From: a virus
Length of the DNA: 64,000 nt
Strand: one strand, 5' to 3'
IMG/VR virus record: IMGVR_UViG_3300045988_033017
Location: 54,699 to 118,698 of that record
In this document: one piece after another, positions 9,972 through 44,810 of the stretch
How the letters are laid out: every line of letters starts with the position of its first letter
Numbering within the stretch: position 1 is the first letter of the stretch
Notes under the pieces: model-generated
Told to the model about the DNA's origin: nothing
The model's database searches: none
The model's input: the letters and a program-made list of their open reading frames with translations, nothing else
Made by a program: the position numbers and the translations under genes

Positions 9972-11056
9972 TTATGTATTAATTTTAATTACTTGTCTAG
10001 AATAGTCAGGCAAGTCAAGTATTTTATTACTTTGGTCAAATGTAGAAGCTGTATTCTGCAATAGGAGTCTTTTAGTTCCATTCGAACCAATTGCATACCA
10101 ATTTGAATCTACATATATTAAATCAGTAAGAGTATATTCACCTAGTGTAGATGTAGTCCAATTATTACCCCTATCTGTAGACACACTCTTCATATTATTT
10201 CCTATAAGCATAAATGTATTAGTCCCAGCTTCATTTACATACAATCCTTTAGTCAAACCTGTTAGTTGTGGTCTAGTGGTTGCAGCAGTCCATTGAGTTC
10301 CAGTTGGGTTAGTACTAACGTATGTATAATTACTTGTAGTGCTATATACTACACTTCTTGGTGAAGAATGAAACCCTTGTATTACTGCACTTGGTGTAAA
10401 CATTCCAGGAGTATAATAAGTAAGAGAATCTGGTACAGATGTAGCCAAGAAGGTATATATTCTAGCTCCTCCCTGATATGATGCCCCAACACAGCAGTAA
10501 TCATAAGGCCCAGTTGATATGCTACTGACTGGACCTACAACACTACGCTCCTTTACTGTACCGTCATCATACACTATAATAACATAGTTCTTATTGTCTC
10601 CTGCTGCTCCTTTATAAAATACCCAGCCAGTAGAGAATCTAGCCAAGTGAACATAAGCATAAGCTTTTACAGTATCTTTGTATTTTAATTCCCACTGTTT
10701 GGTAGACTGATTAACTACATACAATCCTCCAAGTATAGACAATGCTCCAATTGCTTCACCTTCTCCAGCTATGTATATAAAATCCTCATGGCCGTCTATA
10801 GCTGGAATTTGAGCATAGGTCCCACCGCCAGCAAAGTATAAACTACCTGTCTCCGTATTAATAAGGAATAAGTCTTTATTTACAACTATATCTTCTTCTT
10901 TAACTAATTGATTTGGCTGGTAGTTACTAGACGCAACTACGCTACCCCAGAGACTAACTATGGTTTGGTAGTGAGGACAATACCCCCCCCCTTCCCGTAA
11001 TCTATATTCTTACCTGTTAATTCGTTTAATTTACTTTGTGTTACTATTCTACTCAT
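9972..11056 (-). CDS. BNR/Asp-box repeat protein (putative receptor-binding or glycosidase-like); N-terminal 25 codons separated by a frameshift in a C9 tract
   Basis: ORF track body 9972..10742 contains the Asp-box STDRGNNWT and S/T/G/Y-rich beta-propeller composition. An ATG at 11056 with a 25-codon leader lies in a different frame; one extra C in the C9 run 10983-10991 fuses the leader and body into one protein of about 360 aa. Confidence 0.5.
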
Positions 11057-11318
11057 GATTCTTGTATCGTTCTGTAATATTAACTAAATCTTTGTTGTCA
11101 TGTAATAACTCTAGGAAAGCCTTGTCTACTGCTATATCAAATGCAGTATTAGTAATGATTGGTTCTTTATGCACTCTCTCAATCTCTTCTCTAATCATTT
11201 GTTCAGATAATTGAGTGTATAATCGTCTGGTATAATCATTATACCAAGGCTCTTTAAATGTTACTATAATTTCTTCTCCTGTCATAAATATATTGTCTTT
11301 AGTAATCCAGGTAGGCAA
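11049..11318 (-). CDS. hypothetical protein
   Basis: ORF track 89 aa. Confidence 0.45.
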   Translation of the reverse strand: MPTWITKDNIFMTGEEIIVTFKEPWYNDYTRRLYTQLSEQMIREEIERVHKEPIITNTAFDIAVDKAFLELLHDNKDLVNITERYKNHE

Positions 11319-11388
11319 TACTTCCAGCCTGGATATATGTACGCATTCCTATATAATGCTTCTTCTACTAATTCTACTTCTTGTGTTA

Positions 11389-11700
11389 TCATTGATTAGC
11401 CTTTGCTCTTGCTAAATAGTCTCTAGTTTGCCATCTGCCATCATATTCCATATCCCATGGAGCTACCTTATTTAGTATTTGTAGTAGCTCCTCACCACTT
11501 ATAGAGTCTCTATGTTTGAGTGTATGAAGTATTTCATCCTTAAGGTTTCTAATATAGAAGTCTCTCATATGTATGTTAGCATATAATTCCTTTATATAAT
11601 CCCTCATATACTCTGCTAATTCATAGTCATTAGTCTTTAATAATTCTAGAGCTCTCTGGTCTACATTATCATAATCACCTGGTATCTGTTCTAGTTTCAT
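11389..11700 (-). CDS. hypothetical protein
   Basis: ORF track 103 aa. Confidence 0.45.
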   Translation of the reverse strand: MKLEQIPGDYDNVDQRALELLKTNDYELAEYMRDYIKELYANIHMRDFYIRNLKDEILHTLKHRDSISGEELLQILNKVAPWDMEYDGRWQTRDYLARAKANQ

Positions 11701-12071
11701 TGAAGTTTCTCTAAGTTCTTTACTATCGTGAATAGCTCATCTGGTTCGAATGATGTGATATCATTAATAACATCAACCATATACTCTTTAACTTCATCTA
11801 GAGTCATTATTTTAAATTCGTCCTTAGATAGACCTTTAGTTTTGATAAATTTACTAAATATATCTACAATCTGGGCTAAGTTGTGCTTATCTTGTAAATA
11901 GAACTCACCCCTCTCGGGATGAGATGCTAATTTAAATATATCTGCATTATCTGTAATTACTTGTTCATATTCCTCATCACTAAGAAGATTCATTAACGCT
12001 ACAGCTTTATCATATAGCAATTTAACTTCCTTCTCTTCATACTGCTTATTAATTCTATCAATATGTCTCAT
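11697..12071 (-). CDS. hypothetical acidic protein
   Basis: ORF track 124 aa; overlapping stop/start. Confidence 0.45.
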   Translation of the reverse strand: MRHIDRINKQYEEKEVKLLYDKAVALMNLLSDEEYEQVITDNADIFKLASHPERGEFYLQDKHNLAQIVDIFSKFIKTKGLSKDEFKIMTLDEVKEYMVDVINDITSFEPDELFTIVKNLEKLQ

Positions 12072-12073
12072 TA

Positions 12074-12328
12074 TTAGCGAATGTTATTATAAATGCAAGA
12101 TAGTTGCATTAAATATTCAATACCAGCTCCATTAGCTAGTCCGTCTTGCAATTTATTTAATAATTCTAATTTTACATCTGTTGTTTTATTGTCTAACTTC
12201 ACCCAATTAGTTGCCTTTGATTCATTACATCCTAAATCAGTATTTACTGGACATTCTGACAAACTAGTCTTTAATATTTTTACTTCATCTACTTCTTTAC
12301 TTGTTAAGTCTTTAACTTCTTTAGCCAT
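12074..12328 (-). CDS. hypothetical protein
   Basis: ORF track 84 aa; first gene of the minus-strand unit, diverging from the repeat region. Confidence 0.45.
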   Translation of the reverse strand: MAKEVKDLTSKEVDEVKILKTSLSECPVNTDLGCNESKATNWVKLDNKTTDVKLELLNKLQDGLANGAGIEYLMQLSCIYNNIR

Positions 12329-19003: not shown

Positions 19004-19685
19004 ATGGAACAAATAACTCGTAAGCTGCCAAGTCCATAATGGGTACGCCACTTAATGTGGCACAGGAGGATACTGGCTGCTATATTCATTATTTTAAATG
19101 AGACTCCTGGCATGAGAGTATAATCATGCCACTTATGGGCCATACATGGAATTGATTCATGATGACTGGGTAGTAAGACGTGTAGAGTTCGTACCAACTC
19201 TTTAATAATGATACGGCAATTTAAGTGGAAACACTACTTACAGAATGGCAGCCTAAGCTGCTGGCTTAATTAGTGGACGTCATTGATTAAGTCGGGTTAA
19301 TTGGAGAGACCTAGAAACAGAAGAGGTGTGGGAAGAAGCATATAGGGCAGTCCACTTAACTTGAAAGCCAAAGGTTAGTAAAGCTGAAATCTCCACTACC
19401 TATCTATGGGTTACAAATAGAAACGTTCTCCAACGTAAATGGAGTGGTGGAGCGACCGTTCGGTCAAGCCCAGTTTGGTAGTTTATGAACAACTAAGTCG
19501 TAGCCCTACGAGGGAGACGTAATTGGTGAATTAACACTCGGCTTCTTAGTAAAACTACCTACATGCTGAACTCAACAGCTGATGTAATAAAATAGAGACA
19601 CACGTAATCTTATTGTTTAGAGTTGTGAAGACCGCGGTTCGAGTCCGCGATGGTCCACTATTATTAACGTTTAAATATCAATTTT
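19004..19685 (+). other. 680-bp non-coding structured region ending in a tRNA T-arm plus acceptor-like minihelix (19626-19661)
   Basis: No ORF; 3' end CGCGG-TTCGAGT-CCGCG then GTCCACTA, which pairs with TAGTGGAC at 19268-19275 about 390 nt upstream; shares the motif CCATAATGGGTACGCC...TGTGGCACAGGA with 15046-15170. Confidence 0.4.
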
Positions 19686-21533: not shown

Positions 21534-21913
21534 ATCCACTATTGACGAATGGTGGTAGCAAAACTTGGTCTGAAGAACCAGTAGACATATTCCGGAGTAT
21601 GTCTATGACTTAAAGGCTATATCAAAGAGTTGAAACCTGTATCTATTCGAACAGTAGAAGTTCACCTGATTAAGCATCAGAAAACAGTAGTGCAAATCTA
21701 CTATAGATATTGTGTAAGAGAGAATCTACACGGTCTGCATTATATAATCAGCATGCAGATAGGTCACCAAGCAAACCTCTTTCCTGCCTGGTCAAGTGTG
21801 CATTACGGTCTGTAAGTGGCGAGCGGGTTAACGTATGTCCGATTGCCGTAATGCCGCTTGTTTATTGTTTAGAATAAAGAAAGACTCTCATAACAATAAA
21901 TTTAAACAAAGAG

Positions 21914-23608
21914 ATGGAAATGAAAGGAGCACAAAGGCCAAGGAGGCCTTACCCTAATGCCGCACGTCAAAGGCGGGATGAGAATAAACCTAAGTTTGTG
22001 GATAATAATCAGTTATTCATAGACCAGTTTGTTAATCTTAAGAAATGTCTTCAGCCACGTACCTACGTGCAAGTGGCTAAAGATATGTATCCTTTATGGA
22101 AAGCTAATCCATTACTATGTACTAAGTTTACTGCATATACGAGAATGATAACTCGTAAATGTAGAATAACTACCCCGGAAGGAGTTATACAACTTGATAC
22201 ACAGCAAGGAGAAGGTTTGAAGAATGAAGGTATAATGAGAATGTTGTGGTTGGCAATCTATCACAAACCCACATTCCATGCCAACATTGTTTATTTTGCA
22301 GCAGCTGGATGCTGGAAAGATTTCATTACTATGATGGCTTTAGATGTTCAACTCCATGGCTTTAAGCACAGATTGGATTGGGACTTCTTCAAGAAAGTCA
22401 TATTCGCAGGTCTTGCCAACGGTCAGACATGTGATTTAGTAAAGAAGTATCTTCCTCGTGTTCGTTCCAGTGTTGCATGTAAGACAGATGAGGCAAAAGC
22501 ACGTAACACAGTAGCCAAATTCTTGGCGGAAGGCCTTTATGGTAAACCTAAGGACGAAGGAGACTATTCAACCTATCGTAAATATAGGAAGATGAAGAAT
22601 AGCGGGAAAGCAGCCCAATGGCAGCAGTTAATCAGTCAAAAGAAATTCTTGGAAATTGATTTTGACACTGTTACTGGAAAGGCGCTGGCACAGCTAGTAG
22701 GCTCTAAATTCCTCAAACATCAAGGTCTTAAAGAGAAGTATCAGAACTGGTTGAAGAACCGTAAGAAGCCCTCTAATAGCGGATTTCTACATACTCTGTT
22801 CAAACCATACGGATTGGATAAAATTGCCGAAGAGATTCCAGAATTTATGGAAACTTCTATTAATGCAAGTTTCAATGTATTTGTTGATAATGCTAAACGC
22901 AATAGAGTAGCTCCGTTGTTGGTAGTAAGAGATATAAGTCATTCTGCTAATGGTGAGATAGAGAATAGCGAAACATCTGCTTACAGTTTGGGTAAAGCAT
23001 ATGCTTTATATCATTCTGAATTACTTCCTACAATATTCAAGAACTCCTATGCCGTGTTAGAGGATAACATGGTTCTACGTAAGTTCAAAGGTCAGAATGT
23101 CATTGAGAAATGGAAATCTGACAAAGAAGAAGCATTATGCCAGAATCCTTCTATTATTAATATAGCAGAAATGCTGTGTAAAATGAAAGAAGATTATGGT
23201 GTGGATGAAGGAGAGTTCCCTAGAGGCTGTGTGGTAATTACTAACCATACATATTTTACCAAGTTGAACAACCAAGCATTCGTGGAATTTAAGCAGAGAT
23301 TGCTTAAAGCAAATTTCAGTAAGGAATTTGTAAGAGCATTCAAAGTTATCATTTGGAGAGTTCCTTTAGCATATAAGGGAAGACCTAATGTGGCTTTGGT
23401 TCCAGGAGTGTCAAATTGCTTCTTAGTAAATGGACTTAATAATTCAACATCCTCATTTATTACTGGAGAGAAGAGGTTCCAGGTGCCTAAAACCACTAGA
23501 GACATTTTTAAGCATGCTATGAATCAAGAGTTGCTTAATATGATGATTCTAGAGAAGGATGTTGTCAAGAAGAATGCAAGCGTGCAGAAGAAGCCTGTGA
23601 AGGCCTAA
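21914..23608 (+). CDS. Ro60/TROVE-like protein with C-terminal vWA domain (Rsr-like candidate)
   Basis: 564 aa; vWA MIDAS motif in APLLVVRDISHSANG (compare human Ro60 KRFLLAVDVSASM); upstream blocks MLWLAIY and LHTLFKPY resemble Ro60 PMLFALAI and LLRLSHLKP; architecture is an N-terminal alpha region of about 330 aa followed by vWA, as in TROVE proteins. Confidence 0.5.
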   Translation: MEMKGAQRPRRPYPNAARQRRDENKPKFVDNNQLFIDQFVNLKKCLQPRTYVQVAKDMYPLWKANPLLCTKFTAYTRMITRKCRITTPEGVIQLDTQQGEGLKNEGIMRMLWLAIYHKPTFHANIVYFAAAGCWKDFITMMALDVQLHGFKHRLDWDFFKKVIFAGLANGQTCDLVKKYLPRVRSSVACKTDEAKARNTVAKFLAEGLYGKPKDEGDYSTYRKYRKMKNSGKAAQWQQLISQKKFLEIDFDTVTGKALAQLVGSKFLKHQGLKEKYQNWLKNRKKPSNSGFLHTLFKPYGLDKIAEEIPEFMETSINASFNVFVDNAKRNRVAPLLVVRDISHSANGEIENSETSAYSLGKAYALYHSELLPTIFKNSYAVLEDNMVLRKFKGQNVIEKWKSDKEEALCQNPSIINIAEMLCKMKEDYGVDEGEFPRGCVVITNHTYFTKLNNQAFVEFKQRLLKANFSKEFVRAFKVIIWRVPLAYKGRPNVALVPGVSNCFLVNGLNNSTSSFITGEKRFQVPKTTRDIFKHAMNQELLNMMILEKDVVKKNASVQKKPVKA

Positions 23609-23779
23609 GTATTTCGCGCACCGTTTATTTAATAGTTGAATTAATGTTCTGATTGGATAGAAGATAGATTTCATTATGCATGGAGAAGAGCGCATATTTG
23701 GTATAGTAATCTTTGTGCATATCTAGTAACACTAGGTGGGAATTTATTGGATGATTCCATAGGGACTGGATAGAGATAT

Positions 23780-23853
23780 AGTTCAGTGGTAGAACAGCTA
23801 AAGTCAATCTTTAGAAGAACATCAGTTCGAATCTGGTTATCTCTACACCATTT
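23780..23853 (+). tRNA. tRNA, anticodon loop GUCAAUC (CAA?) with short variable arm; identity uncertain
   Basis: Acceptor AGAGATA/TATCTCT, D-arm GTTC-AGTGGTA-GAAC, T-arm ATCAG-TTCGAAT-CTGGT; a degenerate copy of its 5' end (TGGATAGAAGATA) lies about 110 nt upstream. Confidence 0.5.
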
Positions 23854-25325: not shown

Positions 25326-25575
25326 TGCAGTTTATGGTTGTGTACAAGGAGGTCATGCAGTAGCGCAGTGGTTATTAGAACATCCTAAGCAGGATTGGAA
25401 TAATAACTATTTAATCTACTTATATGCAGACTTAGACAAATGGAAAGTAAGATTAGACTTAGTAAATAAGGACTATTCTTCATTCTATGAACCAGACCTT
25501 GGCAATCAATTAACAGCAATCGCATTACAAGATGACGGTCGCATGTTCAAGAAACTTAAATTAGTAAGAGAATGA
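25273..25575 (+). CDS. hypothetical protein (start uncertain)
   Basis: ORF track 100 aa; 53-nt overlap with the upstream gene. Confidence 0.4.
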   Translation: MIHILMKRLYVLIDQKLDAVYGCVQGGHAVAQWLLEHPKQDWNNNYLIYLYADLDKWKVRLDLVNKDYSSFYEPDLGNQLTAIALQDDGRMFKKLKLVRE

Positions 25576-25889
25576 TATACAATCGAGATTATTATGTTAG
25601 TGTAGGAGATGACCATGTAGTTATCACTAAGAACCCTAATCCTCATTTAACCACATTAGAGGATTTAAAAGACCTCAACAAGAGGTATCTTTACAGAGAA
25701 GGGCAGAAGATTCTAACTCCTTTTGGCATCGAAACCATTAAGGAGATTATTAGAACTCATAGCAAGCAACGTGGCTACGAATGGTTAATCCTTGTAGAAG
25801 AGAATGGAAACCAATATACTCCATTTGAACTAAATGGCATAGTAGTCAAGGAACTTACACTTGAACAGTGGAATCAAATTATCGAATAG
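25572..25889 (+). CDS. hypothetical protein
   Basis: ORF track 105 aa. Confidence 0.45.
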   Translation: MIYNRDYYVSVGDDHVVITKNPNPHLTTLEDLKDLNKRYLYREGQKILTPFGIETIKEIIRTHSKQRGYEWLILVEENGNQYTPFELNGIVVKELTLEQWNQIIE

Positions 25890-25926: not shown

Positions 25927-25998
25927 GCCCCATTACTTCAGTGGTAGAAGAGCAAATTCTAAACTTGTATGGCGTTGGTTCGAGTCCAACATGGGGCA
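25927..25998 (+). tRNA. tRNA with CTA anticodon (amber suppressor-like)
   Basis: Acceptor GCCCCAT/ATGGGGC, D-arm CTTC-AGTGGTA-GAAG, anticodon stem GCAAA/CTTGT, loop TTCTAAA gives CUA; T-arm GTTGG-TTCGAGT-CCAAC. Confidence 0.5.
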
Positions 25999-26000
25999 CT

Positions 26001-26071
26001 TGCGGTGGTGGAGCAATGGTAGCTTACTGGGCTCATAACCCAGAGACGACGTTCGAATCGTCCGACCGCAA
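26001..26071 (+). tRNA. tRNA-Met(CAT)
   Basis: Anticodon stem CTGGG/CCCAG, loop CTCATAA; T-loop TTCGAAT; one acceptor mismatch. Confidence 0.55.
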
Positions 26072-26106
26072 CTACAGTCATTGTGCATTTGCATTTTCAG
26101 AATGCT

Positions 26107-36795: not shown

Positions 36796-37863
36796 ATGAT
36801 TAGTATTGTATTAGGAACATTCTTTGGAGACGAAGGTAAGGGACAGACAGTTCACAACTTATGTAACAAGTACATAGGTAAGCGAGAGTCTGTATTAGTA
36901 GTCAGGTTTAGTGGTGGACATCAAGTAGGACATACTGTAAAGCATGGAGACATGATGCACACCTTTAGTAACTTTGGCAGCGGAACCTTACTTGGAGTGC
37001 CGACGTATTGGTCCGAATACTGTACTGTAGACCCAATTACCTCTATGTTAGAGGGTGCAGACTTAGCTAAAATGGGAGTTCGTCCCATTGTTCAGTATCA
37101 CCCTCACTGCCAAGTTGTAATTCCCTTCGATGTCTATTCCCAAGTTAATAACGAAGAGAACTTACGACATGGTACTGTAGGTACAGGGTTTAAAGCTTGT
37201 TTGGACCGAGTTAAGGCAGGATACAGCTTAACAGTTGTAGATTGTATGAATCCTTACATACTACGTGAGAAATTAAATGCCATAGTGGATAACTATTACA
37301 ACATGTCTAGTAAATATCCCTCGATAGACCTAGACAACTGGTGTAGGTTAGCACATGCTTATTTCTTACATACAGGTGCGGTTAATGAAGATTGCTTGTT
37401 AAACTATGACAACCTAGTGTTTGAAGGTTCACAGGGAATATTGCTTGACCAAAGATTCGGCATAATGCCTTATTGCACTCCGTCTAATACAACTTCACAA
37501 AACGCTTACGAGCTGTTGCGGAAAGCAGGCATACGTAAAGAAATCCAAACTTGTTATGTAACTCGTCCTTATATAACAAGGCATGGTAACGGCCCATTTC
37601 CTTCTGGAATGTCTGTTAGGGATGTCGATGACCCTAATAATAAGTTCAACGATTTCCAGAAGACGCTTAGGGCTATTGATTTCGACAAAGACCTATTCGC
37701 ACACAGTGTACGCATTAACCGTTCATTTAAAGTTCCTTATAGGAATGAACGAACGGAGAAATTGTACGTATCACATTGGGATGAAGCATCTGACGCAGAG
37801 CAAGAAATGCTAGCGAATTTATGGATGTCAATACAACCCATGATATTCGATAAGTTAGTTTAG
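36796..37863 (+). CDS. adenylosuccinate synthetase family protein, short archaeal-type (PurA/PurZ-like)
   Basis: 355 aa; P-loop VLGTFFGDEGKGQTV and FSGGHQVGHTV match PurA GDEGKGK and GGHNAGHT; FEGSQGILLD...PSNTT matches FEGAQGTLLD...SSNTT; about 80 aa shorter than bacterial PurA, as in archaeal PurA and phage PurZ. Confidence 0.7.
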   Translation: MISIVLGTFFGDEGKGQTVHNLCNKYIGKRESVLVVRFSGGHQVGHTVKHGDMMHTFSNFGSGTLLGVPTYWSEYCTVDPITSMLEGADLAKMGVRPIVQYHPHCQVVIPFDVYSQVNNEENLRHGTVGTGFKACLDRVKAGYSLTVVDCMNPYILREKLNAIVDNYYNMSSKYPSIDLDNWCRLAHAYFLHTGAVNEDCLLNYDNLVFEGSQGILLDQRFGIMPYCTPSNTTSQNAYELLRKAGIRKEIQTCYVTRPYITRHGNGPFPSGMSVRDVDDPNNKFNDFQKTLRAIDFDKDLFAHSVRINRSFKVPYRNERTEKLYVSHWDEASDAEQEMLANLWMSIQPMIFDKLV

Positions 37864-37884
37864 GAGTCTTCGGACTCCTTTTAC
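37863..37884 (+). terminator. rho-independent terminator after the PurA-like gene
   Basis: Hairpin GGAGTC-TTCG-GACTCC followed by TTTT. Confidence 0.65.
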
Positions 37885-43616: not shown

Positions 43617-44810
43617 ATGAGTGAACGAAGACTTAAACTTGGTCATAGGAAAGAGTATAAACGTAAAAGCAAGCATACTCGTAATCCAAGCTACTATCCT
43701 AGACACCTTACTAAAGTGACGCTAGCTGATTTTGATGCTGATTTCAATTTGAGAGTATCTAAAGAAGTGGCAGCGCAGAGAGGATATGGTAGAAAGGTAT
43801 TAGACAAAAGTTGTCATATAGCTTGGGACCACGGCTATGGATACGTTAAAGAATCTAGGATTGTGAAATTCATAGCCAAGTATGTAGGTAAGCCTTATAA
43901 AGAGCTAGCCAAAGCCTGGAATGAGTGGATTAAGCCAATTAAGAATACTGACAAAACTGAATACCTAGACGACTACTTCACTGATTATAGGTGGAGACAG
44001 GCGTTCTTTAGAGTTGATGATAATGGATTAGTACAATCTGTTGAGCAGACTCCTAGAGGTCGTCGATACAACATTAGTACTAAGCAATGGAAGGAGAACA
44101 GGAATCATGCTTTGCCCAAGTTTGGTAAGATTGCTAAACCTCATAAAGCAGCAGACTATTATGATTACTGTTATGGATTTGCCAATTCTAATCCTGACTC
44201 CAATGGAACAGACTCTGACTTTTATAGACCGAGGTTGCTAGGTCATTATTGGTGTATGGTTAATGGTACTCCAGTTGAGTTGCCAGTATATCATGTGCGT
44301 GATGCTCGTGACTATATAAGGTGGTGGTTAGACGGCAAGCAAGGCAGACTTCCTGGGACTAGAGAAGTAGTTAAAGTCGATACGTACCAGCAACTCTTTA
44401 GACCTGGAACTCATGCTTATGAACAAGCTGTTAAGTTTGATAACAACTGGGTTTATCTTCCGATTCCATGTAGCAAAGGAGGTTATATAGGTGAAACATC
44501 TAAGCATTTTATGCATTTAGAGACGGAGCAGATTCCTAATCCTAGATATGCAGAAATTCAAAGTAGCTTAGATGCTCTTACTAAGAGTGTAGAAGATATA
44601 GAAGCAGGCATAACTGTTACATTTAGTGACGGAGTAACTCCTGTAACTATGGAGTATCTTACTAACGAAATTAACAATGCTCACTATCGTCTGTCTATAA
44701 CATCTAGGTATATAACAGTTAATCACGGCTATGGACAACTATATCCATTAGTAAAACGAATTGATTATGAAAGAACTATTCAAGAAATGGCTAGAGAAAC
44801 TGGCATGTAG
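43617..44810 (+). CDS. hypothetical protein with basic N-terminus
   Basis: ORF track 397 aa. Confidence 0.55.
   Translation: MSERRLKLGHRKEYKRKSKHTRNPSYYPRHLTKVTLADFDADFNLRVSKEVAAQRGYGRKVLDKSCHIAWDHGYGYVKESRIVKFIAKYVGKPYKELAKAWNEWIKPIKNTDKTEYLDDYFTDYRWRQAFFRVDDNGLVQSVEQTPRGRRYNISTKQWKENRNHALPKFGKIAKPHKAADYYDYCYGFANSNPDSNGTDSDFYRPRLLGHYWCMVNGTPVELPVYHVRDARDYIRWWLDGKQGRLPGTREVVKVDTYQQLFRPGTHAYEQAVKFDNNWVYLPIPCSKGGYIGETSKHFMHLETEQIPNPRYAEIQSSLDALTKSVEDIEAGITVTFSDGVTPVTMEYLTNEINNAHYRLSITSRYITVNHGYGQLYPLVKRIDYERTIQEMARETGM

Follow-up and report, generated by a model that had tools for sequence, protein, structure and literature searches.

The genome to which the analysed stretch of DNA (64,000 nucleotides; hereafter, the window) belongs encodes a tRNA with the anticodon CTA, while TAG is still a stop codon there. 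It is probable that this tRNA is an active amber suppressor, selectively kept in a standard-code zeta_9 phage of Bacteroides, and that the phage is in a 'suppressor-first' or 'suppressor without reassignment' state. The expression, charging, and suppression activity of the CTA tRNA, as well as the benefit that maintains it, are what I infer here. The occurrence of a CTA suppressor in standard-code zeta_9 phages is already on record. The additions are evidence for selection on the tRNA and the ruling out of nearly all cis targets and of programmed read-through. In the literature, the combination of the standard code with a CTA suppressor is seen as a possible first step to stop-codon recoding (PMC7886860; 10.1101/2021.08.26.457843). 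A purely transitional pre-recoding state is insufficient alone to account for long-term retention across clades. Rather, judging from the sequences compared, the long-term conservation speaks for selective maintenance of the state and against a mere transition. It is no fleeting accident: across clades the CTA tRNA is conserved with compensatory changes, and it is retained with greater constancy than several sense tRNAs. Thus, zeta_9 phages offer a concrete test case of selection for a suppressor tRNA before any codon reassignment.

Identity of the CTA tRNA and its array

A preliminary description of the window had reported a tRNA of the amber-suppressor type, with the loop TTCTAAA on a GCAAA/CTTGT stem and the anticodon CUA. 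The arm and the anticodon were confirmed by the sequence itself, ARAGORN, and Rfam, and the CUA anticodon supports the suppressor type. ARAGORN assigns the same anticodon (cta, at tRNA position 33) to a tRNA at 25927-25999 on the plus strand. The Rfam tRNA model RF00005 matches 25927-25998 with 62.7 bits (E=3e-11; gathering score 29), which is in the upper range among the window tRNAs. The features in and around the array are as follows.

18498-52174, plus strand (all genes): 29 tRNA genes in an array, with small ORFs between them (ARAGORN, Rfam); the CTA tRNA is the fifth
19137-19660, plus strand: phage tmRNA (Rfam RF00023, 60 bits), beside the tRNA array; ribosome-rescue context
25927-25998, plus strand: CTA tRNA of the amber-suppressor type (ARAGORN, Rfam RF00005, sequence, covariation among orthologues)
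25959-25961, plus strand: anticodon CTA (ARAGORN and sequence); CTA and the next AAAC (positions 37-39) are invariant in 3/3 tRNA sequence variants
26001-26072, plus strand: tRNA-Met(CAT) (ARAGORN), beginning 2-3 nt past the suppressor tRNA; only some near-identical strains have it

The CTA tRNA has an acceptor stem of GCCCCAT/ATGGGGC with the discriminator A73, and the 3′ CCA is not encoded. The D-arm (CTTC-AGTGGTA-GAAG) has the normal GG in its loop, the variable loop is 5 nt in length, and the T-arm is GTTGG-TTCGAGT-CCAAC. In the anticodon arm (GCAAA-TTCTAAA-CTTGT), the pair adjoining the loop is an A.C mismatch. ARAGORN prints the label 'Pyl' for every CTA tRNA. A tRNA-Pyl identity was rejected, since the CTA tRNA is a standard cloverleaf in which the acceptor and D stems are two bases apart, with a GG D-loop and a TTCGA T-loop. 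Pyl-type tRNAs have a short variable loop, one acceptor-D base, and neither G18G19 nor T-psi-C, and their system includes pylS and pylBCD. No Pyl-related Pfam match was found among the 40 window proteins scanned. The CUA anticodon is the sole likeness between tRNA-Pyl and the CTA tRNA.

The 29-tRNA array covers 19 amino acids plus the suppressor; tRNA-Val is absent, and there are three CAT tRNAs (an initiator, an elongator, and probably an Ile2). At 23772-23846 (+) lies a 75-nt tRNA with the anticodon CAA (Leu) but with no long variable arm of the tRNA-Leu kind. In the tRNA lists of Yutin et al., its counterpart is 'Undet', and similar short CAA tRNAs were found on the unrelated viral contigs L199, L205, and L209. 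The tmRNA has G3.U70, the alanine identity pair, in its acceptor, and a plausible tag frame ends in ...YRMAA-UAA; it has large insertions relative to the Rfam model and received no ARAGORN call. RAGATH-34 RNA is matched strongly over its whole length (119 bits; gathering score 60.7) at 21536-21643 (+), between ORFs of 231 and 564 aa. Among the 40 window proteins scanned, no release factor, synthetase, or tRNA-modification gene was found near the array. A TAG-rich 'ORF' at 34650-35051 was dismissed as a non-coding spacer around tRNA-Glu. The palindrome GCTAGC occurs three times within 34930-35100, in the spacer between tRNA-Glu(CTC) and tRNA-Asp, and these repeats contribute to the run of ten TAGs in one frame there.

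Phage assignment and conservation of the suppressor

The window has a G+C content of 36-40% and a strong gene bias to the plus strand; five minus-strand ORFs at 9972-12328 (-), with a local GC-skew reversal, lie within the plus-strand early region. The window products include a DnaB-like helicase, a ResIII/DEAD helicase, an AAA ATPase, an SPFH protein, a PurA-like protein, and a 1252-aa protein containing glucosaminidase. Many human-gut samples have contigs of 182-188 kb that encode identical copies of proteins from the window. The nearest annotated homologues of the DnaB-like helicase belong to uncultured human-gut phages and crAss-like phages, and no near-identical genome was found within the annotated phage collection.

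The genome was walked both ways out of the window, which gave a 147,288-bp composite tiled from near-identical strains and a further ~21 kb. In total, ~168 kb of the ~183 kb was read directly, or ~175 kb with the gene call for a 3254-aa ORF. A divergently transcribed block 5′ of the window encodes TerL (phrog_6681), portal (phrog_6547), tail, tail-fibre, and major head (MCP; phrog_11589) proteins. Further on, there are genes for proteins matching Pfam CrAss_Ring_1 and crAss_MUZ, followed by genes of 1555, 610, 2967, and 3254 aa.

From these sequence features, the genome is identified as that of a Zeta-group crAss-like phage of the human gut, subgroup zeta_9, ~183 kb in length. The subgroup assignment is based on the genome size, the number of tRNAs, the gene content, and a tRNA order identical to that of the zeta_9 cMAGs, as seen by comparison with Supplementary Data 1 of Yutin et al. 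2021 (PMC7886860). The zeta_9 cMAGs listed there (OCHL01000028, OLRX01000007, OWII01000011, OAWA01000024, OKVF01000023, OJPU01000022, and OGTB01000008) are 176-186 kb in length and are annotated as c11 (standard code) with Sup CTA. The CRISPR-predicted host of most of them is Bacteroides xylanisolvens, and the subgroup is abundant in the human gut, accounting for 2.3% of the virus-mapped reads (PMC7886860).

Several other features of the genome were noted. An RNA ligase, a PolyA_pol/CCA-adding-family nucleotidyltransferase, and a polynucleotide kinase-phosphatase (PNKP) are encoded close together at L494:1550-8436 and look like a tRNA repair/maturation kit. An NAD salvage cluster (isochorismatase/nicotinamidase-like protein, NAPRTase, NAD synthase, nucleotidyltransferase, and NUDIX) lies at L494:18458-21418 and L499:7039-12506. 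In some strains (L409, L410, L412, L413, and L416), the match to the MCP extends over 2.3-2.8 kb rather than 1.4 kb, a sign of an insertion. In strain L448, a 568-aa late gene is interrupted beside a DUF723-type endonuclease ORF (L448:16064-18817). The MCP insertions and this break fit the reported load of introns and homing endonucleases in Zeta phages.

Identical copies of the 72-nt CTA tRNA sequence were found on 18 contigs. It is kept in all of 15 loci from sister strains with ~99% identical proteins, while the Met-CAT, Ile, Tyr, Pro, and Asn tRNAs are variably missing from the same loci. The spacing within the array shifts by hundreds of bases between strains (L180-L194; equivalent of window 23.7-27.4 kb). 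Since the ORF at 21914-23608, when used as an anchor, recovered only the ~99% clade, the SPFH protein was used instead. Sister clades were recovered in this way (SPFH 69% and 75% identical; portal 87-88%), and their CTA tRNA lies at the equivalent site of the array, after Tyr and Gly and before Ile, Pro, Cys, and Lys. The CTA tRNA is common to at least three sequence-diverged clades.

The three distinct CTA-tRNA sequences differ at about one quarter of their positions, while C34-U35-A36-A37-A38-C39 is invariant. Compensatory changes have altered both sides of 7 of the 21 stem pairs, in the acceptor, D, anticodon, and T stems. Among these three sequences, 95% of the cells are paired; none of 500 shuffles scored as high, and slid controls had zero or one compensatory pair. 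In addition, the D-loop change GG>GA goes with the T-loop change TTC>TTT, which on the alignment reads as an apparent tertiary covariation from G19:C56 to A19:U56. The tRNA is therefore real, far beyond chance, being identical on 18 contigs and having syntenic orthologues with compensatory stem changes. A search of IMG/VR with a degenerate pattern of the tRNA body, in which the anticodon was left open, matched 26 contigs. All of the 26 carry CTA, and no orthologue with a sense anticodon was found among them; thus, the tRNA has no sense-anticodon counterpart there, and its lineage appears confined to this subgroup. Taken from these comparisons, the CTA tRNA, anticodon included, is evidently under purifying selection.

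The anticodon arm is odd in all clades. The pair at 31-39 is never a standard one (A.C or C.C), so that in effect the stem is reduced to 4 bp and the loop widened to 9 nt. In the commoner sister-clade variant, position 33 is C and the loop is CCCUAAA (L348:2109-2181 and L355:2365-2437). U33 is near-universal in tRNAs. The non-standard 31-39 pair and the C33 of the sister clade may lower the decoding efficiency.

TAG stop codons and programmed read-through

TAG ends 12 of the 94 genes called in the window. In the composite, for which a simple codon-usage gene caller gave 201 genes and 88% coding, the stop codon is TAA in 134 genes, TGA in 44, and TAG in 23. No in-frame TAG was found in any called gene over the ~168 kb read directly. 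This holds for TerL, portal, the tail proteins, MCP, crAss_MUZ (muzzle), and the 1143-1610-, 1555-, and 610-aa proteins, as well as for the stretches read of the 2967- and 3254-aa genes. No TAG-containing ORF with coding signal was found in the composite gaps of 300 nt or more. When TAG was read as sense within the window, no long ORFs merged, and the extensions (1-71 codons) were short or off-frame artefacts. The preliminary description had stated that long ORFs are intact in the standard code and that there is no global recoding; this stands and is extended here from the window to ~168 kb. Recoding of TAG to Gln (code 15) was rejected, since the hallmark genes TerL, portal, and MCP are without in-frame TAG. 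About 96% of the genome is without a codon that needs the CTA tRNA, and zeta_9 genomes should be translated with code 11 in annotation despite the suppressor tRNA.

The 2967-aa gene is split in strain L501. Recoding was rejected as its cause, since the breaks are frameshifts ending in TAA. The three ORFs at L501:10001-18901 (704, 601, and 1632 aa) are in alternating frames, each ending in TAA; the frameshifts are either real or assembly errors.

A relative of the phage served as a positive control. L099 (IMGVR_UViG_3300045988_108145; 178,663 bp), whose portal protein is 67% identical, is TAG-recoded in its late genes, and reading TAG as sense lifts its ORF coverage from 0.28 to 0.83. Thus, recoding is detectable by the method where it is present. 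In L099, 83 in-frame TAGs are spread across 27 genes, none of which ends in TAG. The portal gene has 16 in-frame TAGs, and the closest standard-code relative has Gln at 15 of these 16 positions. L097, a close sister of L099, uses the standard code.

It had also been proposed that the tRNA could drive programmed read-through of chosen TAG-ended genes. Four TAG-ended genes of the window are as follows.

25572-25889, plus strand: 105-aa ORF directly 5′ of the suppressor tRNA; TAG stop; the read-through extension is 5 non-coding codons
33618-34511, plus strand: 297-aa ORF; TAG stop, a second TAG two codons on, and TGA one codon further
36796-37863, plus strand: PurA-like gene, 355 aa; TAG at 37861-37863, then a terminator-like hairpin and tRNA-Gln; the extension is neither coding-scored nor conserved
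43617-44810, plus strand: 397-aa ORF; TAG stop with a back-up TGA one codon downstream

The PurA-like gene had been cited as an example of TAG termination. It does end in TAG, at 37861-37863 and not at 37864-37866 as first given. The PurA-like protein matches adenylosuccinate synthetases over their first ~280 residues only, and a PurZ identity was rejected, as its best solved relatives are ordinary PurA.

For all but one of the 23 TAG-ended genes, the codon-usage score up to the next TAA or TGA is about zero or negative. The median extension past TAG is 6 codons, compared with 7 for the equivalent distance after TAA or TGA stops, and TAG stops are not trailed by closer back-up stops than other stops have. 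The exception is a late-block homing-endonuclease-like ORF: three codons past its TAG, and in the same frame, the next gene starts with an ATG. This apparent TAG fusion of 182+148 codons was rejected, since it consists of a homing endonuclease and a separate gene with its own ATG; it is an adjacency. In diverged orthologues, the stop codon is kept for 18 of 24 TAG, 112 of 157 TAA, and 36 of 43 TGA stops, so that TAG is retained at roughly the rate of the other stops. No conservation of the extension was found in orthologues of 44-89% identity, where the translated extensions hit other stops. Thus, none of the 23 TAG stops has a coding extension, save the endonuclease ORF that shares a frame with the next gene, and the proposed programmed read-through is unsupported by the codon-score, length-control, and conservation tests.

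In the late block, 35 of the 40 stops are TAA, two are TGA, and three are TAG, the three TAG-ended cases being homing endonuclease or strain-variable genes. Among the early genes, 19 of 154 end in TAG. The difference between late and early TAG use is small. A late DUF192 gene (L448:17389-17982) has a tandem TAG-TAA stop, where strain L497 has TAA alone. TAG stops that are not purged (11% of genes) and have no closer back-ups would be unexpected if suppression were efficient and costly.

Charging, possible roles, and known systems

In the suppressor-first interpretation, the CTA tRNA would presumably be transcribed with the other phage tRNAs, since it lies within the array of the early/middle region. 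The CCA would be added post-transcriptionally; the genome has a CCA-adding-family enzyme, besides the RNA ligase and PNKP. A host synthetase would charge the tRNA, and the charged tRNA would compete with release factor 1 at UAG. The expected effects are short, non-conserved C-terminal tails on the ~11% of the phage proteins whose genes have a TAG stop and read-through of host TAG stops. No phage ORF would depend on the CTA tRNA, and the state would be an enabling step from which relatives may have moved on to late genes with TAG read as Gln. A suppressor-before-recoding model has been put forward by Yutin et al. (PMC7886860) and Borges et al. (10.1101/2021.08.26.457843). Host interference and nonsense buffering are candidate selective pressures.

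Which amino acid would be inserted? By analogy with the TAG=Gln of the relatives, Gln is the likeliest candidate; the zeta_4 genomes are listed as 'TAG|q' (PMC7886860). The acceptor stem of the CTA tRNA, together with A73, is found as well in tRNAs for Glu, Arg, Thr, Lys, Leu, and Met from bacteria and viruses, and inference of the amino acid from the stem was given up as uninformative. The tRNA-Gln identity elements of E. coli are unlike G1-C72, C2-G71, and A73 in the acceptor, which makes Gln charging uncertain. Under the E. coli identity rules, a CUA tRNA with these elements might equally be charged with Lys or Thr. As for the origin of the CTA tRNA, the best identity to the other window tRNAs is ~70% (Arg), and that to the phage tRNA-Gln(TTG) is 60%. 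Duplication of another phage tRNA was rejected because of the former value. A tRNA-Gln-derived (supE-type) origin was rejected by the latter value, for which the comparison is with phage tRNAs, and by the absence of a sense-anticodon orthologue in IMG/VR. A 141-aa protein with a YqeY/GatB-like domain (PF09424) is encoded at L499:13415-13840. Domains of this type are tRNA-binding and linked to Gln-tRNA formation; it is speculative that the protein is a charging helper for a Gln suppressor.

Whom, then, does the suppressor serve? It is somewhat doubtful, but conceivable, that the tRNA has been kept under purifying selection across a long divergence for a purpose other than the decoding of the phage's own genes. 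Such a purpose might be read-through of TAG in the host or a rival phage as a weapon or counter-defence (with the tmRNA and the repair enzymes), or compatibility of gene exchange with TAG-recoded relatives. That the tRNA is kept mainly for a role in trans, against the host or a competitor, appears unlikely. There, read-through of host TAG stops would corrupt or extend proteins, including those of defence, and would load ribosome rescue. The abundant late phage proteins would be spared by ending nearly only in TAA, and the tmRNA and the tRNA-repair genes would belong to the same toolkit for the takeover of translation. Long-term conservation of the tRNA without a cis target would suit such a role, as would the TAA stops of the late block (35/40), the phage tmRNA beside the array, and the encoded RNA ligase, PNKP, and CCA-adding-family enzyme. 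Yutin et al. also propose that suppressor tRNAs bring a benefit by impairing protein production in the host (PMC7886860). However, TAG is used freely by the phage's own early genes, and the difference between 3/40 late and 19/154 early TAG stops is small. Moreover, a preference for TAA stops is typical of highly expressed genes.

It is quite improbable that the suppressor is inactive, that is, poorly charged or poorly decoding, and is kept as a decoy or substrate of tRNA-targeting host nucleases or as a processing signal of the array transcript. The odd anticodon arm and the tolerance of TAG stops at 11% without extra back-ups would agree with inactivity, and the encoded tRNA repair enzymes suggest pressure from tRNA-targeting defences. 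On the other hand, while the stems drift, CUA and positions 37-39 are conserved above all other parts of the molecule, a pattern that indicates selection on decoding. The acceptor, D, and T arms are kept as in working tRNAs, as is the contact of the D-loop with the T-loop, and related phages clearly decode TAG. Partial recoding seems very improbable indeed. A few genes with in-frame TAG would have to lie in the remaining ~8 kb, in the unread part of the 3254-aa gene, among tiny ORFs, or among mobile genes that vary between strains (homing endonucleases and intron ORFs, for example). Recoding in crAss-like phages is often limited to a part of the genome or to late genes (PMC7886860), Zeta introns and homing endonucleases are numerous, one endonuclease gene has its TAG in frame with the next gene, and L099 is recoded. 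Nevertheless, ~168 kb read directly (~175 kb with gene calls) has no in-frame TAG, hallmark late genes and giant genes included. Complete zeta_9 genomes were annotated as c11 by Yutin et al. (PMC7886860), and where a strain has the 2967-aa gene split, the breaks are due to frameshifts that end in TAA.

The suppressor-first state can be placed among known systems. A mismatch between suppressor tRNAs and recoding was noted by Yutin et al. 2021 (Nat Commun 12:1044, PMC7886860). Nothing material differs between the zeta_9 Sup(CTA) recorded there and the tRNA described here; that paper is without a conservation analysis or read-through test of this tRNA. The recoded Delta and zeta_4 crAss-like phages, Lak phages, and other gut phages (PMC7886860; 10.1101/2021.08.26.457843) likewise have a phage CUA tRNA among early genes in a low-GC gut phage of Bacteroidetes, and the zeta_9 tRNA would function as theirs do. 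In contrast to the present genome, in which TAG still ends 11% of genes and none has it in frame, the recoded phages have in-frame TAG. The zeta_4 suppressor lies in a differently ordered tRNA array (PMC7886860). The alpha-group OKSC01000115 (Gln TTG->TTA) and the Agate phage (TGA suppressor) also have a suppressor without reassigned codons and are near recoded phages (PMC7886860; 10.1101/2021.08.26.457843). Unlike these two, the zeta_9 suppressor is old, occurs in at least three clades, has evolved with compensatory changes, and lacks a sense-anticodon counterpart; the alpha-group case amounts to one Gln TTG>TTA mutation.

The classical amber suppressors, E. coli supE tRNA-Gln CUA and T4 psu, are sense tRNAs altered by point mutation, either rare or of laboratory origin. 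They resemble the zeta_9 tRNA in being elongator tRNAs that are normal apart from their CUA anticodon, for which competition with release factor 1 at UAG is expected. In contrast, the zeta_9 tRNA is a fixed, conserved gene whose acceptor stem is unlike that of tRNA-Gln.
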